This document shows positions 1 to 15,200 of a stretch of 64,000 nucleotides of DNA, piece after piece; the stretch's first letter is position 1; each line of letters opens with the position of its first letter. The notes under the pieces are model-generated. The model saw nothing but the letters and a program-made list of their open reading frames with translations, made no database searches and had not been told where the DNA came from. The translations under genes were made by a program, and so were the position numbers. The stretch covers positions 72,572-136,571 of the forward strand of contig JAKLFP010000005.1 of the NCBI GenBank assembly GCA_022711115.1, in the 5' to 3' direction. The DNA is from Candidatus Omnitrophota bacterium. GTDB lineage: Bacteria; Omnitrophota; Omnitrophia; Omnitrophales; Aquincolibacteriaceae.

Positions 1-1451
1 TAGGCGCAGGGGATGAAAGGCTTGCGAGTGAAAATCTTGTTCATTTTCCGATGCTGATCCATGAGAAACCTAAAAAAGTCCTCCTGATTGGGACAGGATT
101 CAACGGTGTTTTGAGGGAAATCTTAAAATATCAACCCGACAGGGTTCAGGATGTCGAACTCGATCCTGCACAAGTGGAAATGGCAAAAAAATATATTTCT
201 TTGGAATTACGGCGTGTCTTGGATGATAAGCGTGTGGCAATCTGGACAGGGGATATTCGAGATTTCTTCAGGAAATCTTCAAATGCTTTTGATGTGGTGA
301 TCGTTAATGAACCCAACCCTTCAACGGTCCTCATCAATCGCCAATACACTACGGAATTCTTTCAGTGGATCAAGGAGCATCTTTCGCCAGGCGGGATTGT
401 CGCAGTCCGTTTAAAATTCGCTCCTGATTATATAACCTCCGAGCTTGAAAACCTGGCGGCATCAGTCTACAAGACGTTGAAGCGTTCATTCTCAAACGTT
501 CTTCTCTTGCCTGAAGACACGCTTTATGTCATGGCTTCCATGGTTCCGCTTATGCAGGATCCCACGGTTCTGGTAAACCGCCTTGAAAGCCGCGGGATTC
601 GAAATGATTTTGTGACGTCGGCTTATATTCGATACCGCTTGGGGAATGACCGTGTTGCTAAGGTGCGGGATCTTTTGGAGAAAAACAGCGTTGCAAAGAT
701 CAACGAGGATTCCACGCCGCGGGGTTATTTTTACGAATTTCTTTACTGGGTCAGTTCTTTTCATTTAACACTTGCGAGATTTTTTTTCTTCATCTTGAAA
801 GTACCTTTTGCTGTTGTTCTTGGTGTTCTGTTGTCGGGGATGTTAGGGGCAGGATTTTTTCTTAGAGCACGTCTGCCGGCAAGTACGGCAATGGCTTCGG
901 GCGGGTTCTCGCTGATGGCAACCGAGATCATTTTAATTTACGGTTTTCAGGTTTTTTTCGGCAATCTTTATTATCGGATCGCGTGGATCATCACGGCTTT
1001 CATGGCGGGTATGGGATTCGGGGTATGGATTGGGAATTGCAAACTTCTCAGAGACCCAAGCCGGATGTTAAGCCGCCTGCATGTTTTGACGGCAGGTTAT
1101 TTTCTGCTTCTTACGGTAGGATGGTGGTTTTTATCGCAGCATTCTGCCGCAGGACCGTTATTGGGAGAAGGTGCTTTTCTCTTGATGGCAGGGCTTATAG
1201 GCGGTCTTGTCGGCCTTGAATTTTCATGGGTGACCCAATATTTTGTCGATCATGCCGGCGCAAAAGACATGAGAACGGGAAAAGTCTATGCTGCGGATCT
1301 TTTCGGATCTTGCCTTGGGGCGTTCCTTACGGCAAGTTTTTTCATTCCTGTGTGGGGTGTTTACAGGACACTGATATTTCTTGCTTTTTTGAACGGCGGA
1401 ATCAGTCTACTTCTTCTCTTCGGAAAAAACCTCGGCCGTAAAAACCTGTAA
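1..1451 (+). CDS. Spermidine/spermine synthase-like aminopropyltransferase domain fused to a C-terminal polytopic membrane domain. The 5' end is partial: the ORF is open to base 3 with no in-frame stop.
   Basis: N-terminal region matches the spermidine synthase fold (…VLLIGTGFNGVLREI…; DVELDPAQVEMAKKY; VIVNEPNP). The C-terminal ~200 aa is strongly hydrophobic with multiple helices. Reading the frame back from ATG 51 gives no stop to the window start. Confidence 0.7.
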   Translation, partial: GAGDERLASENLVHFPMLIHEKPKKVLLIGTGFNGVLREILKYQPDRVQDVELDPAQVEMAKKYISLELRRVLDDKRVAIWTGDIRDFFRKSSNAFDVVIVNEPNPSTVLINRQYTTEFFQWIKEHLSPGGIVAVRLKFAPDYITSELENLAASVYKTLKRSFSNVLLLPEDTLYVMASMVPLMQDPTVLVNRLESRGIRNDFVTSAYIRYRLGNDRVAKVRDLLEKNSVAKINEDSTPRGYFYEFLYWVSSFHLTLARFFFFILKVPFAVVLGVLLSGMLGAGFFLRARLPASTAMASGGFSLMATEIILIYGFQVFFGNLYYRIAWIITAFMAGMGFGVWIGNCKLLRDPSRMLSRLHVLTAGYFLLLTVGWWFLSQHSAAGPLLGEGAFLLMAGLIGGLVGLEFSWVTQYFVDHAGAKDMRTGKVYAADLFGSCLGAFLTASFFIPVWGVYRTLIFLAFLNGGISLLLLFGKNLGRKNL

Positions 1452-2981
1452 CTTTACGGACGGATCTTTCCAGCAGTTTCTTGGCAATCCAGCCTTTTGC
1501 GAGCAAAGTTCGCTTAAAAATTCTTCCTTGCTCCAGCCTGTTTCCGTGGCCACTTGCGGCAAAAAAACGCCGTGGTGAAAACCCTTGGAGACCGTGACGC
1601 CATGTTTACCGATGACGATCTCGTCTGCGCTTTCAATATCCCGGAGCGGGCTCAGCACAGAGATCTCATACTCCAGTTTGCCGAGTTCGTCAGGGCTTAC
1701 CGGTCTGAATCGTGGGTCCTGGGTTGCGGCGGCAATGGCCATTTGTGAGATCACTTCATAAAGCGGTATGTCCGGCTCGAATCGACCGATACAACCGCGT
1801 AACTGGCCATATTCGTTCAGGGTTACGAACGCTCCGAGCTTTTGTTGTAAAGTTTGAGATGTCGGTGTTAGCGTCGGTACCTTTTGTGTTCGGACATAAC
1901 TTTCAACCGTGGACCGTGCCATGGCAAGAAGTTCTTCCCGCTCCGCATTATTTAATAAATTTTCCTCTGACAAAGGTTTGGGTTTGTCGGCCTCGCTTTC
2001 TCCGGATTTTGTAAAGGCAAAAGAGGAATAACCCACTACGCGGCTTTTATCTCCCATGAAAGAGTCTCCCGAATTTGCATAGTTGAGAAAATGAACGTTC
2101 GAAAATCCAAGGGTTTGAGAGACCAGCAATAAAGTTCGGACGCCGCTCACTCCGCATAAAAATGTTTCCGCGTTCGGGACTCTTTCACCGCCAAGCTTTT
2201 TCAGTGTCGCGTCGAGATTTTCGGCCTTCCCTGTCTGGATTGCTTGAATAGTTTGGTGATCAGCAGTCGAGGCTGCATCGTAAGGAGGATAATGAGACAT
2301 ATCCGTGCTGGCCACGATAAGCGTCTTGTCATCAATGTTCTTTTTTAACGCATCTGCCAGCAGCGTCGTAAGTGCCGAATCGTCATTGCCAAAAACGAGC
2401 GGCACAATTTTAAAGTTTTTTAACACACGCTGCAAAAAAGGAAGCTGGACTTCCAGGGTATGCTCGCGCATGTGAGCGCTGGGCCGTTCAATAATGACTT
2501 TGGGGCTTGCGGCCATGATCTTTTCTGCGAAAGCTTTGTCGATTTCGACGAGACCTAACGGTGTTTCAAAAGAACCTTCTTTGTAGATAGAAATCCCGCT
2601 AAACCAATCGGTGTGGCTGTTGGAAAGGATAATGACGGTTTTGATATCCTGGCCTTTCAATGCTTTATAAGCGTAGGCTGCGACCGGGCCTGAGTAGATA
2701 TAACCCGCATGCGGAACGATAATGCCTCGGATGTTTCCTTTGATCACAGGGGGGGTGGTCTGGCGTAGCATGGTATCCACGAAATTTTCAAGCTCCGGTT
2801 TTGAACCGGGATAAAATCCCCCGGCGACGGCAGCTTTTCTGATCGGTAAAGACGAGTCTGCGGCACTGCTAAGGGAACTATCCAGGGTTAGTAAAAGAAA
2901 AACTGACAACAAGGTAAGGATCGAAAATAATATTTTATTTCCAAATACCAGGAATTTTTTCTCCATCGGGGCATGCTCCAT
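1407..2981 (-). CDS. Fused AmmeMemoRadiSam system protein B (MEMO1 family) and protein A (AMMECR1 domain), with an N-terminal signal/anchor sequence
   Basis: Memo-like motif GIIVPHAGYIYSGPVAAYAYKAL in the N-terminal half. AMMECR1 core (…LRGCIGRFEPDIPLYEVISQMAIAAATQDPRFRPV…) in the C-terminal half. Hydrophobic N-terminus MEKKFLVFGNKILFSILTLLSVFLLLT. Start chosen at the internal Met, which overlaps the upstream rSAM gene by about 45 nt. The full ORF extends to 3095. Confidence 0.75.
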   Translation of the reverse strand: MEHAPMEKKFLVFGNKILFSILTLLSVFLLLTLDSSLSSAADSSLPIRKAAVAGGFYPGSKPELENFVDTMLRQTTPPVIKGNIRGIIVPHAGYIYSGPVAAYAYKALKGQDIKTVIILSNSHTDWFSGISIYKEGSFETPLGLVEIDKAFAEKIMAASPKVIIERPSAHMREHTLEVQLPFLQRVLKNFKIVPLVFGNDDSALTTLLADALKKNIDDKTLIVASTDMSHYPPYDAASTADHQTIQAIQTGKAENLDATLKKLGGERVPNAETFLCGVSGVRTLLLVSQTLGFSNVHFLNYANSGDSFMGDKSRVVGYSSFAFTKSGESEADKPKPLSEENLLNNAEREELLAMARSTVESYVRTQKVPTLTPTSQTLQQKLGAFVTLNEYGQLRGCIGRFEPDIPLYEVISQMAIAAATQDPRFRPVSPDELGKLEYEISVLSPLRDIESADEIVIGKHGVTVSKGFHHGVFLPQVATETGWSKEEFLSELCSQKAGLPRNCWKDPSVKLQVFTAEVFSEEKK

Positions 2982-4065
2982 TTTTAAGATTATTAACAAC
3001 GACAAAATGTCCTTGCCGGATGATAATTTTTTCTTTAGATTTCGTGCAGTAAGTTGCCTCGGCTTCCATATCTGCAATATTCCCGGTATAAACAAATTTC
3101 AAACCTTCCTCCATGGCAATCTTGCGTGCACGGACCATAGTCTCAGACGGCGTGGGTGGCAGGTTCTGTAATTTATACTGTGGAAAAAAACGGCTGAAAT
3201 GAAGAGGTACGTCGTCGCCGAGGTTTATTTTGATCCAGCGGGCCATGGTTCGGAACTCTTCATCGCTGTCATTTTCGCCGGGGATGATCAGGGTTACGAT
3301 CTCAAGCCAGACACCGCTTTGCTTGATTATCTTTAAAGTATTTAATACGGCATCCAAATGTCCGCCCGTAAGTTTTTTGTAAAATTTTTCTTGGAATGCT
3401 TTCAGGTCTATTTTATAAGCATCGATATAAGGCAGTAATTCTCTAAGCGGTTTCTCCTCAATATAACCGCTTGAGACCATCAATGTCTTCAGCCCTTTGG
3501 ATTTCGCGAGTTTGGCGATATCCAGTACATATTCGTAAGCAATCGACGGCTCATTGTAGGTGAAGGCGATGGACTCTGCGTCGCTAGCCTTGGCAGCGGA
3601 CACGACTTGCTCGGGGGTCATAGGCTGGGCTGAAATATCCCCTGGAAATGACTGGGAGATTTCCCAGTTTTGACAAAAGAGACAACGCATATTGCATCCG
3701 GTGGTGGCCACAGAAAAAGCCTTGCTGCCCGGGAGTACATGGAAAAACGGTTTTTTTTCAATCGGATCTACATGGGCGGTCGCGATCTTGCCATAGACCA
3801 TGGAATATAATTTTCCATCGATATTTTTCCGGGCCTTGCAGGCTCCCCAGCCTCCGGGTGCTATTGCGCAACGGTTGGGACAAAGAAAACACTGCACGGA
3901 TTTGTCGGACAAGGATTCATAATAGCGGGCTATCTGAAGAGATGAAACGATGGGGGATGCATCGGCTCGAAACGAGCGTTCACGTCGACAGATGAATAAA
4001 ATAAGAGCGCCTAGCATCGCTGCAAAAAACAGGAATGAAGCTGTTTTTTTTAAAAAAGACGCCAT
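2935..4065 (-). CDS. AmmeMemoRadiSam system radical SAM enzyme (PFL-activase-like) with an N-terminal hydrophobic extension
   Basis: CxxxCxxC radical-SAM motif (TTGCNMRCLFCQNWEIS). N-terminal ARYYESLSDKSVQCFLCPNRCAIAPGGWGAC is typical of the TIGR04337 family. It sits directly upstream of, and overlaps, the Memo/AMMECR1 gene. Residues 9-26 (ASFLFFAAMLGALILFIC) are hydrophobic. Confidence 0.8.
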   Translation of the reverse strand: MASFLKKTASFLFFAAMLGALILFICRRERSFRADASPIVSSLQIARYYESLSDKSVQCFLCPNRCAIAPGGWGACKARKNIDGKLYSMVYGKIATAHVDPIEKKPFFHVLPGSKAFSVATTGCNMRCLFCQNWEISQSFPGDISAQPMTPEQVVSAAKASDAESIAFTYNEPSIAYEYVLDIAKLAKSKGLKTLMVSSGYIEEKPLRELLPYIDAYKIDLKAFQEKFYKKLTGGHLDAVLNTLKIIKQSGVWLEIVTLIIPGENDSDEEFRTMARWIKINLGDDVPLHFSRFFPQYKLQNLPPTPSETMVRARKIAMEEGLKFVYTGNIADMEAEATYCTKSKEKIIIRQGHFVVVNNLKNGACPDGEKIPGIWK

Positions 4066-4110
4066 CTTTTCAATCCTCTTTTTAAGAACAAATCCATTTC
4101 CTTCTTTTTC

Positions 4111-4731
4111 TCAGTGAATATTATGAAGAATCGAATAAATTCCGTAAATGAAAAAGATCCCTGCGACCACGAAACCGCTGAGTCGGGCCATGAATCGGAA
4201 TTCTTTGGTCCGCGCCAGAAATCCCACAAAGATGAGCGGCAGGAAGTAAATAGAACTTGAAAGGAAAAAAAGAAAAAAATAGATCATGCCGTACAGGACA
4301 TAATGTTGGGAGATGACATAGGAAACAGCCAGGAGAAAAGGAGGACAGAGGTTGATTCCCATCAAAAATCCCATGGTAAAAGGACTTTTCCCCTTGAGAC
4401 GAGCAGAGCCAGCGCAGAGCGGATTTTTTTCACGGACCAAACCAACCAAATAAAGAAACAGGATGAGCGATAACAGGAGAAAAGAAATATCGGTCATGAG
4501 TCGCAGCAATCCAGAGTTTAATTTCTCTCCCGAATAACCTGCAAGGATCCCGATGCAAAGATAGCCCGCAAGGCGTCCTCCCAAAAATTGCAAGACAATC
4601 AATGTGTTTTTTTTAAAGGGGCGGTCTTCAACGGTGAGAAAGGAGCCCATGAAAGGGAAGCAGTAAGTCAGGCAGAAAGCCCCCACTGAAAGTCCGGCCA
4701 GCAAAGGTTGAAAGATCATCTCGCTTGTCAT
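4111..4731 (-). CDS. Polytopic membrane protein, possibly a CcdA/DsbD-like thiol-disulfide transfer family protein
   Basis: About six predicted TM helices. Cys residues are embedded in helices (FCLTYCFPF … INLCPPFLL), resembling the two half-site Cys motifs of CcdA. The family assignment is uncertain. Confidence 0.35.
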   Translation of the reverse strand: MTSEMIFQPLLAGLSVGAFCLTYCFPFMGSFLTVEDRPFKKNTLIVLQFLGGRLAGYLCIGILAGYSGEKLNSGLLRLMTDISFLLLSLILFLYLVGLVREKNPLCAGSARLKGKSPFTMGFLMGINLCPPFLLAVSYVISQHYVLYGMIYFFLFFLSSSIYFLPLIFVGFLARTKEFRFMARLSGFVVAGIFFIYGIYSILHNIH

Positions 4732-4907
4732 GGCTTCTATAGTAACAGAAAACGTTCCTTTTCTGGAAGAGCTCCTTTAGAGCGATTGTGGGAATATAAT
4801 GCGGAAAGGAAGCCATTGAATGCAGAAATCATCAACGATTACAATCACAAAAAGTTCTCAATACGGGTCCAAATGCCACCGATAAAGCTAATGAACGAAA
4901 GGTGGTT

Positions 4908-6221
4908 ATGAAAAATTTTTATCAGGGACATATTTTGAAAAATCACGCTGAGCTTTTTAAAACAGCCCATCGCTATCTTGTCGGAGGTGTGAATAGCCCG
5001 GTTAGATCCTTTAAGCCAATAGGGGGGGATCCGGTTTTTTTGAAACAGGCCAAAGGTTCCAAGATTTACGCCGAAGACGGACGTAAACTGACCGATTATT
5101 GTCTTTCCTGGGGGGCGATGATCCTAGGACATGCTTATCGAGAAGTTGTTGAGGCGTTGGAGCATGCGGTGAGACAAGGCACCAGTTATGGAATGCCCAC
5201 TTGCCTGGAAACCGAATTAGCAAAATTGATTGTTGATGCCATTCCTTCGATGGAACAAGTCCGGCTAACAAATTCCGGAACCGAGGCGGTAATGGGTGCG
5301 ATCCGTGTCGCCCGGGCTCATACCCAAAGGGACAAGGTCGTCAAATTCGAAGGTTGTTATCACGGCCATGCGGATCATCTTTTGGTCAAAACCGGATCGG
5401 GTGCGAACACTTTGGGAATTCCCGATAGCCTTGGAGTTCCTGCTGATTTTTCCAAGCATACCCTGGTTGTTTCTTACAATAATATCGAGCAAGTAAAAGA
5501 AACTTTTCAGCAGTATTACAATGAAATCGCGGCGGTTATTGTCGAACCTGTGGCAGGCAGTATGGGAGTCGTGATGCCCGAGCCAAATTTTCTTAAAGGA
5601 CTTAGAACGCTTTGTGATGAACACGGAGCTTTGCTGATTTTTGACGAAGTGACTACGGGTTTTAGGCTTATGTATGGCGGGGCTCAAAATTATCTCGGTA
5701 TTCTGCCAGATCTGACCTGTCTTGGGAAGATCATCGGTGGGGGCATGCCGATTGGAGCGTTCGGCGGACCACGTGAGATAATGAAAGTGCTGGCACCTTT
5801 GGGTGGCGCTTACCAGGAGGATACCTTGTCCGGGAATCCCATAGTGGTGACAGCAGGCATTGCGACTTTGAAATGTCTGAATCGTCTTCAGCCTTACTCG
5901 AAGTTGGCCTCTGCAACTCAAAAATTGTGCAAAGGAATCCAAGACGCGGCAGATTTTGAAGGGTTTAAGATCCGTATCAATGCGGCAGGATCCATGTTTT
6001 CCTTTTTCTTTACAGATCAAAAAGTAGTTCATTATCAGTCCGCAGCTTGCCAGGATACGGATTCTTTTCGGGAGTTTTATCAAGAACTTCTGCAGAGAAA
6101 TATTTATTTCTCGCCGTCACCTTTTGAAGCCAATTTCGTTTCTGTTGCCCATTCCGAAAAGGATCTTGAAAATACCCTTCAAGCTGTTCGGAATATTTTT
6201 AAAAAAATGAGAAAACAATAA
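4908..6221 (+). CDS. hemL: Glutamate-1-semialdehyde 2,1-aminomutase
   Basis: GGVNSPVRSFKPIGG, SWGAMILGHA, LIFDEVTTGFR and class-III aminotransferase architecture. A GTG at 4902 is an alternative start; the ATG at 4908 follows GAAAGG. Confidence 0.9.
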   Translation: MKNFYQGHILKNHAELFKTAHRYLVGGVNSPVRSFKPIGGDPVFLKQAKGSKIYAEDGRKLTDYCLSWGAMILGHAYREVVEALEHAVRQGTSYGMPTCLETELAKLIVDAIPSMEQVRLTNSGTEAVMGAIRVARAHTQRDKVVKFEGCYHGHADHLLVKTGSGANTLGIPDSLGVPADFSKHTLVVSYNNIEQVKETFQQYYNEIAAVIVEPVAGSMGVVMPEPNFLKGLRTLCDEHGALLIFDEVTTGFRLMYGGAQNYLGILPDLTCLGKIIGGGMPIGAFGGPREIMKVLAPLGGAYQEDTLSGNPIVVTAGIATLKCLNRLQPYSKLASATQKLCKGIQDAADFEGFKIRINAAGSMFSFFFTDQKVVHYQSAACQDTDSFREFYQELLQRNIYFSPSPFEANFVSVAHSEKDLENTLQAVRNIFKKMRKQ

Positions 6222-6246
6222 AGAACTTTTCGATGCGGAGTTTTGT

Positions 6247-7767
6247 ATGACAGATGCCTTTTTGAGTCAATCTCAAGAAGATTCCTCCGACCCTTTTTGC
6301 AGCGATCTGCCCTGCAGGCCCAATCCCCGGATGGGTAAAATTCTGGTGACGGGTGCTTCCGGGTATATAGGCGGCAGGTTGGTTCCTGAATTATTGTCAC
6401 GCGGGTATCAGGTAAGGGCCATGGTCCGGCGTGCCTCGCCGGAATATCAGGCGCGTTGGCCCCTTGCGGAGATCGTTGTTGCGGATGCCTTGGACGAAAA
6501 AACAGAGGCTCTTGGAAAAGCGCTTGCCGGGATCCATACAGCCTATTACTTGCTCCATTCTCTTTATTTGGGGCCGGAGCAATTCGAAGCCGCTGATATC
6601 AAAGCGGCCGAAAACTTCAGAAAAGTTGCTCAGGAACAGCAAATCCGACGGATAATTTATTTAGGAGGACTCGGTGATATCCAAAGTTCTCTTTCTTCGC
6701 ATTTGAGAAGTCGCATCGAAGTGGCCGAAGAATTGAAACGCAGTCAAATTTCCGTGACGATCCTTCGGGCCGGTATCATTATCGGTTCGGGAAGCGCTTC
6801 CTATGAAATTATTCAGCATCTCGTGCGGCGACTCAGCATAATTTTAGTGCCTTCTTGGGCTAAAAACAGATGCCAGCCGATTGCCATCCGGGATGTGATC
6901 AAATATCTCGTGGGGATGTTGGAAGTTCCTGAGACCGAAGGTAAAAATTTCGACATCGGTGGGAAAGATATTTTGACTTATGAAGCCATGCTGAAAAAGT
7001 TAAGCGGGATTTTAAATAAAAAAGTTTTTTTCATTCCCTTTCCGGTTTCCGGCACTCGCGGTTTTGCTTATCTCTCAAGCTTGTTCACGCCAGTGCCGGC
7101 TTCCATCACGCAATGTTTAATGGACAGTCTGAAAAATGAAGTGGTTTGCCAGGAAGATAATGTTAAACGGTATGTGCCGTTCGAACCCATGTCCTACAAA
7201 GAGGCGATTGTGAGAGCTTTGACGCGTGAAGACCAGGACCGGGTCTATACGAGATGGTCGGATGCTTATCCTCCTGCCCATGAACTTGCGCTCAAACTTC
7301 ATGAACTGAGTATCGGCCCAGCTTTCGGCGTTCGCTATTTTTTGGCCACGAAAAAGAATTCCCAATCGATTTTTAAATCCATCTGTAATGTCGGCGGCAA
7401 GGAGGGATGGTTCAACCATAATTGGTTATGGCGCACGCGCGGGATGATCGACCGTATCTTAGGCGGTGTGGGGTCGTCCCGGGGCCGGCGGAGCTATACC
7501 AAGCTAATCATTAACGACGTGATTGATTTTTGGCGCATCGAAGATCTTCAGGACGGGGAGCGGCTTCTCCTGCGATCCGAAATGAAATTACCCGGTAAGG
7601 CGTGGCTTGAATTCACGATTGAAGATAAGGGTGATGAAAGAAAATTAGCGTTGACCGCTTTCTATGATACCCAGAGTCTTTGGGGAAAAATTTACTGGTA
7701 TGCCTGCCTTCCTTTTCACCATATCATCTTTAAGAATCTTCTTTTTGATATCGAGAAAAGAAGCTGA
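6247..7767 (+). CDS. NAD(P)-binding NmrA/SDR-like domain fused to a DUF2867-type C-terminal domain
   Basis: Rossmann motif ILVTGASGYIGGRLVPELLSRGYQVRAMVR. Long C-terminal domain typical of DUF2867 fusions. GGAG lies 6 nt upstream of ATG 6247; an alternative start is 6331. Confidence 0.7.
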   Translation: MTDAFLSQSQEDSSDPFCSDLPCRPNPRMGKILVTGASGYIGGRLVPELLSRGYQVRAMVRRASPEYQARWPLAEIVVADALDEKTEALGKALAGIHTAYYLLHSLYLGPEQFEAADIKAAENFRKVAQEQQIRRIIYLGGLGDIQSSLSSHLRSRIEVAEELKRSQISVTILRAGIIIGSGSASYEIIQHLVRRLSIILVPSWAKNRCQPIAIRDVIKYLVGMLEVPETEGKNFDIGGKDILTYEAMLKKLSGILNKKVFFIPFPVSGTRGFAYLSSLFTPVPASITQCLMDSLKNEVVCQEDNVKRYVPFEPMSYKEAIVRALTREDQDRVYTRWSDAYPPAHELALKLHELSIGPAFGVRYFLATKKNSQSIFKSICNVGGKEGWFNHNWLWRTRGMIDRILGGVGSSRGRRSYTKLIINDVIDFWRIEDLQDGERLLLRSEMKLPGKAWLEFTIEDKGDERKLALTAFYDTQSLWGKIYWYACLPFHHIIFKNLLFDIEKRS

Positions 7768-7897
7768 GGCGTGATAATGCAAAGAAACTGTTTAGATTCT
7801 TGCGTGCCGTATAAACTCCACTTGTCTGCCAGCTTTTTGTATAATGCCCCAATGAGGCGCGTATGATTTTTAAAAGGCAAATAAAAAAAGAGCGACG

Positions 7898-9292
7898 ATG
7901 AATACGGATTTATTGTTGATCAAGCCTGATTTCCATGATATCGCGATCATGCCACCGATCGGGCTTGGATACTTATCCTCAATTCTTCGAAAAAAAGGTG
8001 TTTCCGTTGCCATTCATGATAATACCCTTCTTGGTTTTGATGACAAACGATTGGAAGCCCTGATTCGGGAACTTCGGCCCAGGATCATTGGTCTTTATGC
8101 TGCAACGCCGATGATCAAACGAGCTGAAGCGATTGTCCAACTCGCCAAACGTATTGATCCCGAGATCCTGGTGGTGCTTGGCGGGCCGCATCCCACCTGT
8201 ACTGTCGAAGAAACACTTGTCTATGCCGATGCTGTTGTGATGGGAGAAGGGGAAGAGACATTTCCCCCCATGGTGGAAAGATTTTTGGGAGGTTCGCGCG
8301 ATTTTTCGGGTATTGCTGGTTGTGCTTTCAAGGAGATGGGCGGGCAGGTGAAAATTAATCCCGCGAGGGATATCATCCGAGATCTGGACTTGCTTCCGTT
8401 TCCGGATTTTGAACATATGCCGATCTCAACCTATTTGAGTCAGGGAAATACTTTCGGTATCACTCAGAGGACAGCCCGGAGCTTGCCCATCATGGCTTCC
8501 AGGGGTTGTCCGTCCAACTGTACTTTCTGCCAGCGGTTTTTAGGAAAAAAATTCCGTATCCGTAGCGCTCAAAATGTGGTGGAGGAACTGACGCATTGGA
8601 AGGATAAGTACCAAGTGGATGAATTTAACTTTCTTGATGATAATTTCACACTTGTCAAAAAAAACGTTCTGGATGTTTGCGATCAGATCCACCGTAAAGG
8701 ACTCCATATCAAGTTCCGTTTTCCGAACGGTGTCCGGGAAGATTATCTGGATGAGGAGATCTTGGAGGCCCTTAAATCCGTGGGATGTTATCACCTTGAT
8801 TTCGGGATCGAAAGCGGCAGCCAGAAGGTTTTGGACCTCATGAAAAAGGGAAAAAAACTGGAGGATATCGTCGCGAAAGTTCATCTTTGCAAAAAGGCAG
8901 GCTTCAAAGTGTCCTCCTCATTCCTTTTCGGAACTCCGGGAGAAACCCTGGAGGATATGAAACAAACGATCCGTTTCGCGATATCCTTACCGTTAGACAG
9001 CGCTTGTTTCAGCCTCGTGATGCCGTTTCCTGGGACCGAAGTGCGTAAGGAAGCGGAAGCGAAAGGTTACTTGGCGCATAGTGATTATGAGGATTACACG
9101 ATGAGTCTTGAAAATATGAGACCCCCGTTGCAGACGCCCGATTGGAGCGGAAAGGATATTCTCTTTATGATTCGAAAGGCGAACCGGGATTTCTTTCTTC
9201 GCCCAAAACAGATCATGACGCTTTTACCAAGCATGCTCAATCCCGTGAATATAAAGCGATATGCCGTATCTTTTTTAAAAACGTTAAAATAA
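7898..9292 (+). CDS. B12-binding domain radical SAM protein (class B rSAM)
   Basis: N-terminal B12-binding-like region (LLLIKPDF…PPIGLGYLSSIL…). rSAM motif SRGCPSNCTFCQRF. Has the elongated C-terminal region seen in this family. Confidence 0.85.
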   Translation: MNTDLLLIKPDFHDIAIMPPIGLGYLSSILRKKGVSVAIHDNTLLGFDDKRLEALIRELRPRIIGLYAATPMIKRAEAIVQLAKRIDPEILVVLGGPHPTCTVEETLVYADAVVMGEGEETFPPMVERFLGGSRDFSGIAGCAFKEMGGQVKINPARDIIRDLDLLPFPDFEHMPISTYLSQGNTFGITQRTARSLPIMASRGCPSNCTFCQRFLGKKFRIRSAQNVVEELTHWKDKYQVDEFNFLDDNFTLVKKNVLDVCDQIHRKGLHIKFRFPNGVREDYLDEEILEALKSVGCYHLDFGIESGSQKVLDLMKKGKKLEDIVAKVHLCKKAGFKVSSSFLFGTPGETLEDMKQTIRFAISLPLDSACFSLVMPFPGTEVRKEAEAKGYLAHSDYEDYTMSLENMRPPLQTPDWSGKDILFMIRKANRDFFLRPKQIMTLLPSMLNPVNIKRYAVSFLKTLK

Positions 9293-9310
9293 TTTAGAAT
9301 CCTAAAAACA

Positions 9311-10156
9311 ATGTTTTTTAGAAAACCGAGGTTCGCGAAAATGTCGACGGAACGTATGCCTATTGTTTCGGTTGTGATGCCTTGCTATAACGCGGCAAGA
9401 TTTTTGAGAGAAGCCGTTGAAAGTATTTTGTCGCAAAGCTTTAGCGATTTAGAACTCATAGTTGTGAATGATGCTTCCACGGATGCCACCAAGGAAATTT
9501 TGATGGAATATCAGGCGAAAGATGGGCGCGTGGTATATGCGGAGCACGTGGCGAACCGCGGCGTGAGTGAGTCGCTGAATACAGGCCTGCGCCTTGTCCG
9601 CGGGGAATTCGTCGCCCGTATGGATGCGGATGATATTGCGGAACCGGAGCGTCTGGCGAAACAAGTCGCTTTACTTCGCAGAGATCCGGAAATTGTTGTG
9701 TGCGGTACTTTTCTTACCCTGATCGATGAAAACGGGAAAAAGATCGGAAAACGTGATTATGATGTGGATAGTGAGGTCATTAAAAAAAGATTTATGCGCC
9801 GGAGCCCTGTAGCCCATCCATCGGTTGTGATACGAAAGCAAATTCTGAATGCCCACCATTTAGAATACAGGCGCAAATATTTTTCCGCAGAAGATTATGA
9901 CCTTTGGCTACGGCTTATGCCTTATGGGAAGTTTGCGAATGTCGGAGAACCGCTTCTTCGGTACCGGCTTTCCAGCGATGCTCTCACGGTTCGTCGTTGC
10001 AAGACGGCGCTTTGGAGCACCATTCGCTTGAAATGGAGGTATTTGCGCTATGCGGATCTTGCGTCCTATGGTAATTTGATGTTGGAAATGATCTTGATGC
10101 TATTGCCGAAAAATGGAATCCTTTTTTTATACCGAAAATTCCATGGAGTCCAGTAA
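9311..10156 (+). CDS. Family 2 glycosyltransferase
   Basis: VSVVMPCYNAARFLREAVESILSQSF…ELIVVNDASTD and a DAD-type motif (RMDADDIAE). Alternative start at 9341. Confidence 0.85.
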   Translation: MFFRKPRFAKMSTERMPIVSVVMPCYNAARFLREAVESILSQSFSDLELIVVNDASTDATKEILMEYQAKDGRVVYAEHVANRGVSESLNTGLRLVRGEFVARMDADDIAEPERLAKQVALLRRDPEIVVCGTFLTLIDENGKKIGKRDYDVDSEVIKKRFMRRSPVAHPSVVIRKQILNAHHLEYRRKYFSAEDYDLWLRLMPYGKFANVGEPLLRYRLSSDALTVRRCKTALWSTIRLKWRYLRYADLASYGNLMLEMILMLLPKNGILFLYRKFHGVQ

Positions 10157-11596
10157 ATGAAAATCTGTTTCCTTGTCCCGCCGCCCCTAGATGGAAAACC
10201 AGCCGCGGAGCGTATTTTTGGCTGCAACTACGGGGTTTACAACCAGCCTAATATTTTTATGCTTTATGTGGCGACAGTCCTTCAAAAAGCCGGGCATGAA
10301 GTGCTGATCAAGGATTGTGTGATTGAGCATGCTTCTGTGAGTGCTTTTCAAAAATTCATCACTGAGAACTCTTCTGATATTTATTTTTTGGGAACGGTAT
10401 TTCTTTCCAAAACGACTGATTTAAAAGCCCGAGAAATGATCCGTCTCTTACAGCCGCATGCCAGATTTTGTTACTATTCCACAGAGCCGACAGCTCATCC
10501 GGAAGATTTTGCTGCGGAAGATACCGTGATCATCCGTGGAGAACCGGAAATGACCTCGCAAGAGGTTGTTGCCGCATTGGAAAAGAAAACGCTGCTGCAA
10601 GATATCCGCGGGATCGTATTTTCTTCCGGAGGGAAGTTGGTAGATACGGGATATCGTGAACCTCTCGAAAATTTGGACGTATTACCTTTTCCTGACCGCT
10701 CCCTTTTGCTAAAAAGAAATTACAATAATCCCAAATTATCGGTTTATCCTTTTACCACGATCCTTACTTCCCGGGGATGTCCGTATCGCTGCTATTACTG
10801 TGTCCCGAATTCGCTTTCTTTTTCCAGAGAGATCGATCTTAAAAAAAAGACTGGGGCTTTCCTGAAGCCTCGCTTTCGTTCCCGTTCGGTGGACAATGTG
10901 GTTCAGGAGGTCAGGATGTTGGCCCGCCAGGGTTATCGTTCTTTTTCCATTCTGGATGATCTGTTTGCTTTTGATAACCAGTGGACGATCGATTTTTGCC
11001 AGAAGATTCAAGATCTCAGGATGGAATGGTCCTGTCTTTCTCGTGCGGATCACATGACGGATCCCGCCATGGTTCAGGCGATGGGAAAGGCGGGTTGTAA
11101 ATTTGTGGCAATGGGGATCGAATCCTTCCACCAGGATATTTTGAAATTTGTCAGAAAGGATCTGGATCTCGGAACCGTACCAGTAGCGGTTCAAAATATG
11201 AAAAAAGCGGGTATTGAAGTTGTGATCAATGTGCTTTTTGCTTCCTGTGATTTAGAAACCGAAAAGACAATCCTTGAGACTTACCGCACTCTGAAACAAT
11301 TGGATCCGGATTATGTGCTTTTTTCCGCATGTACGCCGTTTCCCTATACGGAATTTAATCAAATCGCCAGGGAAAAAGGGTGGATGGTTGAGCCTGAATA
11401 CCGGCCTGTAGATCCGATGAAATCAGCCTTCATATCTTACTCGCATCTTTCCAAGGAGAGAATCGAAAAGCTATTGCGACGGGTTTATATCGGCTTTTAT
11501 TTCCGTCCAAGCTATCTCTGGAAGAAGCTTTGCAAGGTCAAAAGTCCGTTGGATTTTATCAATAAAATCAAAGCAGCTTTGAACATATTTCGCTAA
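10157..11596 (+). CDS. B12-binding domain radical SAM protein (class B rSAM)
   Basis: MKICFLVPP… B12-binding-like N-terminus. rSAM motif SRGCPYRCYYCVPN. The ATG directly abuts the stop of the GT2 gene (TAAATG). Confidence 0.85.
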   Translation: MKICFLVPPPLDGKPAAERIFGCNYGVYNQPNIFMLYVATVLQKAGHEVLIKDCVIEHASVSAFQKFITENSSDIYFLGTVFLSKTTDLKAREMIRLLQPHARFCYYSTEPTAHPEDFAAEDTVIIRGEPEMTSQEVVAALEKKTLLQDIRGIVFSSGGKLVDTGYREPLENLDVLPFPDRSLLLKRNYNNPKLSVYPFTTILTSRGCPYRCYYCVPNSLSFSREIDLKKKTGAFLKPRFRSRSVDNVVQEVRMLARQGYRSFSILDDLFAFDNQWTIDFCQKIQDLRMEWSCLSRADHMTDPAMVQAMGKAGCKFVAMGIESFHQDILKFVRKDLDLGTVPVAVQNMKKAGIEVVINVLFASCDLETEKTILETYRTLKQLDPDYVLFSACTPFPYTEFNQIAREKGWMVEPEYRPVDPMKSAFISYSHLSKERIEKLLRRVYIGFYFRPSYLWKKLCKVKSPLDFINKIKAALNIFR

Positions 11597-11612
11597 TGCG
11601 GTAAACCTTTTC

Positions 11613-12221
11613 ATGAAGCACGCTTCTTCGACCCAGGCAACCCGCTCTCAAGATTACACAGACTATCTTGCAAAGGATTCACAAATATGGTGGAAACGTC
11701 TGTTTCATGTTCAGGCACCTTATGCCTGGAATTTACGACGGCTTAAACCAGGTTTTACTTTAGAAATAGGCTGTGGGATTGGCCGCCAGTTGCTTTATCT
11801 TTACGGGAATGGAGTCGGTATTGACCACAACGCAGCGTCAGTTCAGGGCGCAAGAAAACAGGGGCTTCAAGCTTTTACTCCGGAACAATTTCAAGCTTCT
11901 TCTTTTAACAAACCTTGCAGTTTCGATTCTTTGCTCTTAGCTCATGTTGCAGAACATATGACAAAAGGCCAAGTGATCGATCTTTTGAGCCGGTACGTCG
12001 GCCTTTTAAGGTCTCACGGAAAATTAATCCTGATCACACCTCAGGAATTGGGTTTTCAGAAGGATCCCTCGCATGTGGAATTCATGGATTTGTTGAAAAT
12101 GCGGGAAATAGCGGAAACGCTTGGGTTTCAAATTGTTAAGCAATATTCTTTCCCATTTCCCAGAGTTTGCGGAAAGTTTTTTAGACATAATGAATTTGTC
12201 TCAGTCGGGATAAAAAAGTAG
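11613..12221 (+). CDS. Class I SAM-dependent methyltransferase
   Basis: Motif I LEIGCGIGRQL and Methyltransf_11/12-like spacing. Last gene of the +strand operon. Confidence 0.8.
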   Translation: MKHASSTQATRSQDYTDYLAKDSQIWWKRLFHVQAPYAWNLRRLKPGFTLEIGCGIGRQLLYLYGNGVGIDHNAASVQGARKQGLQAFTPEQFQASSFNKPCSFDSLLLAHVAEHMTKGQVIDLLSRYVGLLRSHGKLILITPQELGFQKDPSHVEFMDLLKMREIAETLGFQIVKQYSFPFPRVCGKFFRHNEFVSVGIKK

Positions 12222-12280
12222 ACAATATTCATTTTAAATCTTGTTGGAAATCGCGACGGTCAAATCACCCGACAAATTCT

Positions 12281-15200
12281 TTAAAGAGAGTTTTTTGAAT
12301 GGGTTTCTTCGGTGGCAAGTGAGTTTAAGATCTCAATGGCTTCGCGATGTTCTTTTTCGTGACGATGCGACTCAAAGCGGCTCACAAGACTGTAAAAGCA
12401 CGGCACAACAAACAGGGTTAACAATGTTGAAACAGCCGTACCCCAGATGATCACGGTCGCCATCGGTGCGCGTTGTTCAGCGCCTGGCCCCAGATTCATG
12501 ACTGCCGGCAGGGCGCTCGCGATGACCGCAAATGTTGTCATTAGAATCGGACGAAGGCGCAGCGGGCAAGCTTCAAGCAAAGCTTCGTTGACACCGAGAC
12601 CTTCCTCACGTCTTTGATTGGTAAAATCTACGAGGAGAATCGAATTTTTCTTTACGATTCCCATGAGTAACAAAAGACCGATGAAACTTAACATGTTGAG
12701 CGAATGGTTCATTAAAAAGAGTCCCAAAAATGCACCGGAAGCGGAGAAGGGGAGTGCTAAAAGAATTGTCAAGGGATGGAGAAAGGAATTGAACTGCGCT
12801 GCCAGGATCATATAGGCAATAAAGATCCCGAGGATCAACGCGAAAGAAAGCTGTTGGAAGGATTCTCGGAACCGTTCAGCACTTCCGGACATCACCAAAT
12901 GGTACTCTTTGGGGAATTCCTTTCGGGCAATTTTTTCAGCAAGTTCCAAGGCTGTTGCTTGTGATTTTCCACGAGCCACATTTCCGAACACATGCACAGC
13001 CCTCTCGCGGTTTTCGCGTGAGATCAGCATCGGTTCCGGAGTTTCAACCGTGTGTGTCACTTCCGAAAGGCGGACCATTTCACCCCGCTGATTGCGCACC
13101 CAAAGCAGATTGATATTTTCAAGCTTACGCCGGTTTTCATCCGTAAGACTAATCCGAACATCATAACGGCGATCGCCTTCCGTATACTTTGCGACTTTGA
13201 CACCACCCATGGCGACCTGGATGGTTGTTGCGATTGATTCTGTGGTAACCCCGCGTTCCGATGCCTTGACGCGGTCCGGGATGACATGCACTTCAGGAAT
13301 GTCGATGAGATAATCCGTGTCCATGTCCATGACCAATCCCGATTCTTGGAGACGCGATATGAGAAGGTTTGCCAGTTCACCCAGTTTTTTCCAATCAGGT
13401 CCCTTAATGGAAATGTCGATGGGGTAGTCTCTCGCCCCGGCAGCCGAGGCCGTTGAGAGGTCCTGGAGTGTCGCGCGCATGACCCCCGGGATTAGATTAA
13501 ACTCCTTGCGGCATATATCCATGAGATCTTTTTGTGACAGGCGGCGTCCTAGGATTTTATCCTTGGGACGGTCGTGAGGTTTTTTCAGGGTAACAAGCAA
13601 GATGCCGGCATTGACGTCACTTCCCGTGCCAGTTCCACCGGCGACCGCAAAATAGATTTCAACCTCGGGTCGTTTTGAAAGAAAGTCTTCTGCTTTTTTC
13701 AAGACCTCATCGGTTGCGGCCAAAGATGAGCCTGGTGGGGTTTGGATACGGACAAGAAAACGGCTGATGTCATGCACGGGGATGAACTCCTTGCGGATCA
13801 GGGGCATAAAAAAAAGCGAGGCTACAAAAAAAACGAGGGCGAAAGCCACCACTTTCCCGCGATGACGTAATGCTGCTGTGAGCGCGCTCGAATATAAAGA
13901 ACGCAAATGATTCATAATGTTATCTGCGACGCGTCCGACTCGTGTATCATGTCCAACTTTTAAGAATTGACTGCAACGAGAGGGTGTCAAGGTGACGGCT
14001 TCCAAGAGCGAAAAGGCAACGGCTGCGGAAACTGTGATGCCAAATTGAAAGAAAAATTTACCGATGAGGCCTTGCATGAATGCCGTTGGCAGGAAAATGG
14101 CGATGACTGCAAGCGAAATGACTGCGACGGCAAATATGATTTCCCTGGAGCCTACGATAGCTGCAAGGACGCGGGTTTTTCCCATTTCATAATGGCGCGC
14201 AATGTTTTCAAGCACCACAATCGCGTCGTCCACCACAATTCCAACCACCATCGAAAGTCCTAAGAGCGTTACATTATTGAGCGTAAATCCCATGAAATAC
14301 ATGACAATAAACGCGCCGCCCAAGGCCGTGGGAATTGCCAAAACGACGTTAATCGTTGAACTAATGGAACCTAGAAAAAACCAGCAAACGATACCCGTGA
14401 AAAGTATTGCCAAAATGATCGTCAATTCCAGTTCATGGACCGTTTCTTTGGTCTGTTCCGTACTGTCAAAATTGATCGTCAATCGGAGGTCTTTGGGTAA
14501 TTCGGCCGAGAGTTCTTTGACGCGTTTTTTGACGGCATTAGCTACTTCGACGGCATTGGTTCCGCGCTGTTTGCGGATGCCCAGCCCTACCGAAGTTTTT
14601 CCTAAGACGCGAGCCTTTCGTCGGACATCTTCAAGACCGTCTTCTACAATTGACACATCGCTTAAACGGAAGGTTTTCCAAAGATAGCCTTCCCTGACGC
14701 GGCTGGGGATTACCAATCTGCTCAGCTCCTCGACATTTTTAGTCTCTCCTAATACCCGGATATTCCGTTCTGTTTTTTCGGTGGTCAGACGGCCGGCAGG
14801 GAGTTCCGTATGCTGTGCTTGAATGGTGGCCATCACGTCTTCTGCGGTGAGGGACAGCGCTTCGAGCTTATGGGCGTCCAGCCAGACACGCATGCTTGGT
14901 TCGGCAAACCCTCCAAGAGTGATTTCTCCCACATTGGGAACTGTTGCGAATTGATCTTTAATATGATCCTTGATATATTCGACCAATTCGCGAAGGGAGC
15001 GATCTCCCGAAAGTCCCACCCAAATGATGGGCTGGTCATCGGGGTTGACTTTGGTAATGATCGGAGCATCCATATCCTCTGGCAGATTACGTTGTGCTTG
15101 CGCGATCTTCGTTTGAATTTCTTGGACGGCCACATCGATATCCTTGGACAGCTCAAATTCCGCAGTGATATTGGCACTGCCAAACCGGGAACTAGAAGTG

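Follow-up and report, generated by a model that had tools for sequence, protein, structure and literature searches.

Within a 64,000-nucleotide (nt) stretch of a Candidatus Omnitrophota genome (assembly GCA_022711115.1, contig JAKLFP010000005.1, positions 72,572 to 136,571; hereafter the window) lies an operon that encodes, in order, a membrane protein of the DsbD_2 family, a radical S-adenosylmethionine (SAM) enzyme (rSAM) and a fused Memo–AMMECR1 protein, accompanied by a convergent gene for a spermidine-synthase-like protein with 14 transmembrane (TM) helices. By sequence criteria the locus truly belongs to the AmmeMemoRadiSam system while departing from its canonical soluble form, and with moderate confidence we read it as an envelope-facing (extracytoplasmic) variant that would be fed electrons through the DsbD_2 protein. 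This suggests that oxygen-sensitive chemistry proceeds at the outside surface of the cell membrane instead of in the cytoplasm. What appears to be new is the export or anchor signals and the neighborhood of membrane electron carriers; the fusion of Memo (B) to AMMECR1 (A) is itself already known.

From archaea to humans, AMMECR1 and MEMO1 are conserved proteins with links to human disease, and we know of no reaction assigned to the prokaryotic three-gene system. The locus matters because the function of the system has long been mysterious and because AMMECR1 is the strongest Pfam marker of anaerobes, being the most informative family for predicting an anaerobic lifestyle (51% of anaerobes versus 3% of aerobes; PMC13386939).

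The initial annotation had placed three open reading frames (ORFs) of this system correctly on the minus strand and had proposed a B–A fusion within it, and alignment to the TIGR04335, TIGR04336 and TIGR04337 models confirmed the fusion, with all scores above the cut-offs. The fusion scored 264 bits against TIGR04336/Memo (cut-off 26; residues 48-323) and 186.4 bits against TIGR04335/AMMECR1 (cut-off 99; residues 350-519, both in the 524-amino-acid [aa] numbering), while the rSAM scored 383.1 bits against TIGR04337 (cut-off 220), its residues 46-374 covering model positions 1-332. The rSAM keeps C59/C62/C66/C76, an auxiliary cluster motif, and C124/C128/C131 (CX3CX2C) as invariant residues. 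In a 28-sequence alignment, H86, H118, D222, H225 and C271 of the Memo domain (519-aa numbering) were invariant, and we take these to correspond to the metal ligands of human MEMO1. The same alignment held R390-G-C392-I-G and D417-x-R419-F420 invariant in the AMMECR1 domain, whose motifs have been defined as RGChG and DxRa (PMC2034487). The fusion had been taken to argue for a physical complex, but it is no new clue: AMMECR1–dioxygenase (Memo) fusions were noted in 2007 by Balaji and Aravind (PMC2034487), and the two domains were fused in 120/120 of the nearest homologues.

What sets the locus apart is the N-termini. The TIGR04337 model aligns from residue 46 of the rSAM onward, which makes its 45-aa extension real, and with the Memo model starting at residue 43-48 both N-terminal extensions are additions to the family cores. 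A hydrophobic extension of about 40 aa had been claimed for the rSAM, and this held at 45 aa, in a form that is conserved across the nearest homologues and absent from the family model. Its 20-residue hydrophobic core takes the protein out of the canonical soluble, signal-free form, as does a signal-like N-terminus of 35-40 aa for the fusion. In 90 of the 150 nearest rSAM cluster representatives at 50% identity, the N-terminus is of the short canonical kind (MKEALFYxKLxxxKVQC), in which the first Cys follows after ~16 aa. We gave practically no credence to the possibility that the hydrophobic N-termini arise from start codons set too far upstream, a worry raised in the initial annotation. ORF-based starts are purely mechanical, but ribosome-binding sites precede both proposed starts, no start codon lies downstream of either hydrophobic segment and ahead of the point where the family model begins, and the extension pattern is conserved over hundreds of homologues, including canonical SRRDFLK motifs. 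For the rSAM, AGAGGA lies just before ATG 4065, and the only in-frame alternative upstream of the domain is M17, within the helix, the next being L52/V57, inside the TIGR04337 model. The ORF containing the fusion (1407..3095, minus strand) has plausible starts at ATG 2981 (524 aa) and, five codons downstream, at ATG 2966 (519 aa), and the hydrophobic segment is included with either. The latter (MEKK...) follows a GGAG at a distance of 9 nt, and nearly all homologues begin there, among them P0001, which is 98% identical to the window fusion.

With the homologue-supported start, the rSAM and fusion genes overlap by 32 nt (47 nt from ATG 2981); an overlap had been correctly seen, although its size had been put at about 45 nt. 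The gap between the DsbD_2 gene and the rSAM start measured 45 nt. The 32-nt overlap recurs in loci L004, L005 and L006 and suggests translational coupling. Through it, the conserved fusion N-terminus MEKKSPASGNK is explained as the other-frame reading of the conserved rSAM C-terminus ...CPDGEKIPGIWK. A promoter and terminator scan of window positions 1200-5100 found signals no better than those in shuffled sequence.

KK precedes and RRER follows the hydrophobic helix of the rSAM, which has no signal-peptidase site (…LILFIC|RRER); it is probably an uncleaved signal-anchor, to judge from this layout. All of the 120 nearest homologues show K/R, then ~20 uncharged residues (median core 20), then (Y/S)RE. 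Net charge of the flanks was +1.9 on the N-side versus +0.3 on the C-side and was higher on the N-side in 102/120 homologues, so an N-in/C-out orientation is favored. The window rSAM lacks the twin-arginine translocation (Tat) motif S/T-R-R-x-F-L-K, reading ...FLKK... with no RR before the helix. At the position of this helix, orthologues carry Tat or Sec signal peptides, and P0241, P0244 and P0249 carry the last TM helix of a NapH-like module.

The N-terminus of the fusion looks like a cleavable Sec signal peptide rather than an anchor. It consists of an n-region (MEKKFLVFGNK), a 17-aa h-region (ILFSILTLLSVFLLLTL) and a c-region (DSSLSSA) with a predicted cut before ADSS, and by sequence reading it shows the features of a Sec (signal peptidase I) substrate: a positive n-region, an h-region of 10-20 residues and small residues at -3/-1. 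Where the window has SSA|AD, close homologues have VHA|A, ANA|A or LVA|A, Verrucomicrobia-type orthologues have lipoboxes (LLASC, LAAC, LTAC), and a third group has MKK followed by a long uncleaved anchor. Of the 120 nearest fusion homologues, 111 were extended N-terminally by 18 aa or more and had a hydrophobic core there, with a lipobox-like Cys in 30 of these. An AlphaFold2 (AF2) model of the fusion (mean predicted local distance difference test score [pLDDT] 88.7) placed a helix at residues 11-29, then a disordered linker before the Memo domain. Thus the hydrophobic N-terminus that had been called an anchor was upheld, but its anchor nature was not, given the cleavable layout and the orthologue lipoboxes. 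In locus L001, positions 7486-7944 (plus strand) encode a thioredoxin-like protein of 152 aa that has an N-terminal signal peptide and a WCGWC motif. The next gene downstream specifies a Memo–AMMECR1 fusion of the lipoprotein type; the rSAM (P0234) is elsewhere on this 572-kb contig. An exported thioredoxin fits a need for reduced catalytic thiols outside the cytoplasm.

To survey the family, one genome per GTDB species was scanned with an rSAM alignment, which gave 80 loci, 78 of them with a usable rSAM, that were annotated with our own pipeline of ORF calls and hidden Markov models. Over the 78 loci, rSAM N-termini were anchor- or Sec-like in 34, twin-arginine in 35 and without an extension in 9. 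Sec-like cleavable examples are MKRLIYNLVVLAVWGSLFLPVAHA|EN and MKKSLLLLILLLSVLFPAIGA|DQ, and Tat-type rSAMs begin with SRRDFLK, TRRxFL or, in some cases, TKRDFLK, after which come a stretch of moderate hydrophobicity and an AxA site. These signal types are largely clade-specific, with ~9 switches on a neighbor-joining tree. B–A fusions encoded near the rSAM had a Sec-like or lipoprotein N-terminus in nearly all loci. The nearest 150 rSAM cluster representatives included 26 with Tat-like N-termini, 5 of the hydrophobic Sec/TM type and 14 with long N-terminal fusions, several of which involve membrane or extracytosolic modules. Three further representatives, classed as having another extension (P0261, P0319, P0326), show RK- or RR-type motifs by eye. 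The fusions, N-terminal segments and CcdA-like gene for which a survey had been suggested all recur in the family.

Domain fusions gave a second line of evidence, based on Pfam scans of long representatives with hydropathy and positive-inside analysis. P0249 has the architecture DsbD_2 – FMN_bind – 2×Fer4_5 (CX3CP) – TM – rSAM, while P0241, which is 50% identical to the window rSAM, and P0244 consist of signal-anchor – FMN_bind – Fer4_5 – TM – rSAM. In P0246 and P0263 one N-terminal TM helix and FMN_bind precede the rSAM domain, and in P0245 and P0262 DsbD_2 is joined to it with no TM helix between. Across P0244 and P0249, all K/R-rich loops, including both CX3CP loops, fall on one side of the membrane and FMN_bind and rSAM on the other; because such fusions put the rSAM on the same side as extracytosolic domains, the rSAM of these relatives is predicted to lie outside the membrane. 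The DxxTGAT flavinylation motif was kept in all rSAM-fused FMN_bind domains. In L019, L023 and L024 a DsbD_2–FMN_bind–NapH-like protein is encoded as a separate gene immediately upstream of the rSAM; window positions 1-14000 contained neither FMN_bind (PF04205) with the flavinylation motif nor a PF12801 membrane iron-sulfur (Fe-S) protein. P0252 (681 aa) is signal peptide – CBM_11 – rSAM and P0255 (919 aa) is signal peptide – Reg_prop/PorZ-like beta-propeller – rSAM, which hints at a polysaccharide or cell-surface substrate. P0258 is signal peptide – Memo – AMMECR1 – rSAM, and it and P0242 are genuine triple fusions with a single N-terminal signal. Known from just one sequence on one JGI contig, an apparent rSAM–B–A triple fusion with an internal MEKK… signal, P0026 (900 aa), was set aside as probably produced by a frameshift across the 32-nt overlap, and we do not count it as evidence for partners on opposite sides of the membrane.

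The third line of evidence is the membrane protein encoded upstream. This 206-aa protein scored 58.5 bits against PF13386 DsbD_2 (cut-off 24.9), and a 100%-identical copy deposited from a Candidatus Omnitrophota metagenome-assembled genome bears the NCBI name "sulfite exporter TauE/SafE family protein". A 20-sequence alignment showed C20-x3-C24-x-P26 in TM1 and N127-x-C129-P130-P131-F132 in TM4 to be invariant, and an AF2 model (pLDDT 74.6) had six long helices. Because loops 1, 3 and 5 are K/R-rich, the protein is predicted to be N-out/C-out, and we propose that it serves as a transmembrane thiol-based electron conduit. The window protein did not match the PF02683 DsbD_TM model, against which its homologue P0486 reached 25.6 bits (cut-off 27.1), and a Foldseek search found no solved structural relative; the term "CcdA-like" used in the initial annotation therefore applies only at clan level. 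That call was right in so far as this is a Cys-bearing protein of the DsbD/CcdA clan that co-occurs with the system. DsbD_2 was present in 31/34 Sec/anchor-type rSAM loci versus 2/35 Tat-type loci (Fisher p = 7e-14). Between the DsbD_2 and rSAM genes, five loci contain an ORF of ~101 aa with three hydrophobic segments and conserved His (…YLHNKL…VLHVGIN…): L002 6633-6938, L003 672-977, L004 6594-6899, L005 7633-7992 and L008 5709-6014. It had no Pfam match and is absent from the window, whose gap between these two genes measures just 45 nt; a small subunit that binds haem or quinone is one possibility. In Tat-type systems the counterpart of DsbD_2 may be a Tat-exported DUF362 protein (PF04015, ~300-330 aa, with its own twin-arginine signal), which was encoded just upstream of the rSAM in 10/35 Tat loci versus 0/34 Sec/anchor loci (L045 7009-7905, L062 7058-7945, L071 6961-7857, L075 5287-6273 and six further Tat-type loci).

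The convergent gene encodes a polytopic protein of ~750 aa with a spermidine-synthase-like (SpdSyn-like) Rossmann domain and forms the fourth conserved part of the system, which the initial annotation had not noted. The 3' ends of this gene and the fusion gene share 45 nt. The protein was found in 42/78 related loci, across all signal types, and when neighbors were clustered it was the most frequent after the rSAM (48 loci), followed by B–A (39) and DsbD_2 (35). In a small sample of three canonical loci with a signal-less rSAM, neither DsbD_2 nor the SpdSyn-like gene was found; a 776-aa gene beside the canonical rSAM P0251 was examined as a candidate and is not SpdSyn-like. The protein scored 71.7 bits against PF01564 and 45.7 bits against NF037959 (fused MFS/spermidine synthase; cut-off 40), and its 75.1 bits against the SpeE equivalog TIGR00417 fall far below the cut-off of 249.55. 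Alignment-averaged hydropathy of 33 orthologues gave 7 TM helices, a Rossmann domain of ~320 aa and 7 further TM helices; hydropathy of single sequences gave 6 or 7 TM helices before the domain, leaving the topology ambiguous, and only the alignment average was coherent. The K/R-rich parts are the N-tail, L2, L4 and L6, then L8, L10, L12 and the tail. Because these fall on the other side, the SAM-fold domain is placed, with moderate confidence, on the outer side. Its motifs GTGFNG/GNGING and NEPNP/NLPNP (window 3-1451, plus strand; L002 9573-11819, minus strand) occupy what we take to be the positions of SpeE GGGDG and the catalytic D-S-x-D-P. Because they differ from the SpeE motifs as we understand them, the protein is probably not a true aminopropyltransferase.

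Several considerations weigh against an extracytoplasmic rSAM. The cytoplasm is where SAM, low-potential reductants and the machinery for Fe-S assembly are located, and a Sec-exported or anchor-type rSAM must acquire two [4Fe-4S] clusters outside. We know of no radical SAM enzyme that acts outside the cytoplasm, and our literature searches found no extracytoplasmic one. Tat-like motifs can be vestigial, as in NarG. Our topology and signal calls are based on Kyte-Doolittle hydropathy and K/R counts, and around the window rSAM anchor itself (KK / RRER) the count of positive residues is ambiguous, only net charge favoring N-in. The association of DsbD_2 with Sec/anchor-type loci is partly confounded with phylogeny through the clade-specific distribution of the signals; despite this, we argue for a functional link because the gene fusions exist. 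Finally, the Nitrospirota/Thermodesulfovibrionales loci L030, L043 and L054 pair a signal-less rSAM with a lipobox-bearing B–A fusion, and partners therefore need not share a compartment; these loci are the chief counter-example to an outer location of both. These rSAM genes (L030 3663-4637, L043 7995-8969, L054 7923-8969) encode proteins beginning MPKTVQCELCP…, have stops just upstream and are accompanied by a SpdSyn-like gene. The pattern looks like a secondary loss of the Tat signal inside the Tat clade.

Such loci lend support to a split topology, in which Memo–AMMECR1 is exported and an N-out/C-in helix keeps the rSAM domain in the cytoplasm, where it would act on the fusion or on a lipid-linked substrate before or during export. 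The RRER cluster behind the window rSAM helix agrees with that orientation, and the arrangement would be biochemically economical, with cofactor, cluster assembly and reductant on one side. It would be similar to anaerobic sulfatase-maturating enzymes or the HXS maturase, whose clients are modified first and exported afterward, and maturation by an rSAM before Tat export has a precedent (PMC13128918). We nevertheless consider it rather unlikely, since 35/78 orthologous rSAMs have complete Tat signals with AxA and ~25 have classic cleavable Sec-type peptides, P0258 and P0242 hold Memo, AMMECR1 and rSAM in one polypeptide behind one N-terminal signal, and direct fusions join the rSAM to FMN_bind and to the C-terminus of DsbD_2, which is predicted to be outside. 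Across the homologues, anchor net charge also points the other way, to N-in.

The initial annotation had instead suggested membrane tethering of the whole system, which we read as tethering at the cytoplasmic face, with both helices holding the enzymes at the inner leaflet, for example near a lipid or isoprenoid substrate. Each protein has a single N-terminal helix and no further TM helix, the biochemical requirements of radical SAM enzymes favor the cytoplasm, and Memo contexts are reportedly linked to isoprenoid modification. However, the n/h/c layout of the fusion N-terminus is that of a cleavable signal peptide, the lipoboxes of its orthologues imply export and acylation, and in L001 an exported thioredoxin adjoins the fusion. 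Orthologous rSAMs bear Tat and Sec signals, and partners such as DsbD_2 and FMN_bind would have a sensible role only in redox chemistry on the extracytosolic side. We regard such tethering as quite improbable. Because of the Tat, Sec and lipoprotein signals in the family and the fusions to FMN_bind, NapH-like, DsbD_2 and CBM domains, export to the outer face is better supported.

On the envelope-facing reading, a mechanism can be sketched, which we offer tentatively as one possibility. Catalysis by the rSAM would take place outside the cytoplasm of anaerobes after export by the Tat or the Sec/anchor route, with Fe-S clusters gained in the periplasm in the Sec/anchor case, reduction by DsbD_2 or DsbD_2–FMN_bind–NapH-like proteins, and an adenosyl cofactor obtained or recycled via the 14-TM protein, and the enzyme would modify an envelope or extracellular substrate with the exported Memo–AMMECR1. 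In the window, the fusion would be exported through Sec, its signal peptide probably being cleaved after SSA, and the rSAM would sit on the outer face of the inner membrane, kept there by its uncleaved N-in/C-out signal-anchor. The DsbD_2 protein (N-out/C-out, with Cys in TM1 and TM4) would pass reducing equivalents outward from the cytoplasm, and these electrons may keep thiols reduced, both the many Cys ligands and the catalytic ones (AMMECR1 C392, Memo C271), or may prime the rSAM cluster. In sister lineages the same need would be met by the DsbD_2–FMN_bind–NapH-like proteins and, in Tat-type systems, possibly by Tat-exported DUF362. More speculatively, the 14-TM SpdSyn-like protein, with its SAM-fold domain predicted to be periplasmic, might supply or handle the adenosyl cofactor outside. 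The substrate could then be an envelope or extracellular molecule, perhaps a glycan or an aromatic polymer, a guess prompted by the fusions to CBM_11 and to a propeller and by the LigB-type fold that Memo has.

Tat-like, hydrophobic or fused rSAM N-termini make up as much as ~1/3 of the 150 nearest cluster representatives. If these proteins are exported and connected to electron carriers that span the membrane, the hunt for the substrate shifts to the cell envelope or exterior, and DsbD_2, FMN_bind/NapH-like modules, Tat-exported DUF362 and the SpdSyn-like 14-TM protein become concrete partners. Should the rSAM truly be active outside, the assumption that radical SAM chemistry, Fe-S loading and SAM supply are confined to the cytoplasm would fall. 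An envelope-facing variant thus gives the system a location, a partner set and straightforward topology experiments. Our literature searches returned no description of exported AmmeMemoRadiSam members; an earlier description in Burroughs et al. 2019 (JBC) is possible.

The features of the locus are collected in Table 1.

Table 1. Coordinates of the AmmeMemoRadiSam operon, its protein features and the convergent gene in the window.
Feature	Position	Strand	Basis
DsbD_2-family (PF13386) six-helix membrane protein, 206 aa	4111..4731	(-)	Pfam match
AmmeMemoRadiSam radical SAM enzyme (TIGR04337), 376 aa including probable N-terminal signal-anchor	2935..4065	(-)	NCBIfam match
rSAM N-terminal hydrophobic helix, residues 9-26, ASFLFFAAMLGALILFIC	3988..4041	(-)	conserved in 120/120 nearest homologues
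Memo (B)–AMMECR1 (A) fusion, 519 aa from ATG 2966	1407..2966	(-)	TIGR04336 and TIGR04335
Predicted Sec-type signal peptide of fusion, residues 1-35	2862..2966	(-)	n/h/c layout by sequence reading
Memo/LigB-fold domain, metal-site signature intact	2013..2840	(-)	PF01875, 209 bits
AMMECR1 domain	1425..1934	(-)	PF01871, 195 bits
Out-of-frame overlap of 32 nt, rSAM stop and fusion start	2935..2966	(-)	sequence
3' part (482 codons) of convergent SpdSyn-like membrane protein gene, cut by window start	3..1451	(+)	PF01564, NF037959

Beyond the operon, and divergent from it, lies an ORF for a HemL-like aminotransferase (window 4902-6221, plus strand), identified by eye, followed by a gene for an NmrA/NAD-binding and DUF2867 protein (6247-7767, plus strand); neither gene is found again in related loci. 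Two paralogous B12-binding radical SAM proteins (PF02310 and PF04055) are encoded within a few kb of the system, at 7898-9292 and 10157-11596 (both plus strand). This family (cluster 9) was again found beside the DsbD_2 or fusion gene in four other Omnitrophota/Verrucomicrobia-type loci (L001 4375-6177, L004 4406-5902, L006 3376-4839, L008 6320-7819) and may be a lineage-specific accessory or mere synteny. Genes for MiaB-like and RsmE proteins (clusters 6 and 7) were rejected as system components, being synteny of one Omnitrophota sub-clade. Among the rSAM representatives, P0281, P0296, P0309, P0351 and P0376 (710-823 aa) had two match stretches ~400 aa apart, just past the CX3CX2C region; the insert in P0281 is an intein with a LAGLIDADG endonuclease (PF14890, PF14528).

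Compared with the canonical AmmeMemoRadiSam system, the window locus matches the same three models with adjacent genes, intact catalytic signatures and the common B–A fusion. The canonical rSAM, however, is soluble with a short N-terminus, whereas both proteins here carry export or anchor signals, the operon adds DsbD_2 and the 14-TM SpdSyn-like gene is conserved alongside. CcdA/DsbD proteins (PF02683; LysE/DsbD clan) share with the window protein six TM helices, a conserved Cys followed by Pro in TM1 and TM4, and a place beside exported Cys-dependent proteins, but the window protein belongs to PF13386 and has a CX3CxP pair in TM1, not a single Cys.

Relatives of the window rSAM (P0241, P0244, P0249, L019, L023, L024) also resemble the NapH-like/FMN_bind systems flavinylated by ApbE, in that they are fused or adjacent to FMN_bind (DxxTGAT) and Fer4_5/CX3CP, although the window itself has DsbD_2 only. 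According to Méheust et al. 2021 (PMC8238504), NapH-like proteins with an N-terminal FMN-binding domain conduct electrons through the membrane to enzymes on its extracytosolic side; the terms "radical SAM", "Memo" and "AMMECR1" do not occur in the main text of that paper. The closest solved structures to the rSAM are those of pyruvate formate-lyase activating enzyme and other glycyl-radical enzyme activases (3c8f, E = 2e-12), with which it shares the radical SAM core. It differs from them in its extra N-terminal four-Cys motif and its export or anchor signal, and it scores far below the family cut-offs (71.9 bits against TIGR02493, the pyruvate formate-lyase activating enzyme model, with a cut-off of 231.75); no glycyl-radical enzyme gene was seen within ~14 kb. 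As in the anaerobic sulfatase-maturating enzyme (anSME) and the HXS system (PMC13128918), radical SAM chemistry here appears tied to periplasmic proteins. In those systems, however, the rSAM is cytoplasmic and the signal is on the client only, whereas here members of the rSAM family themselves bear Tat, Sec or anchor signals.

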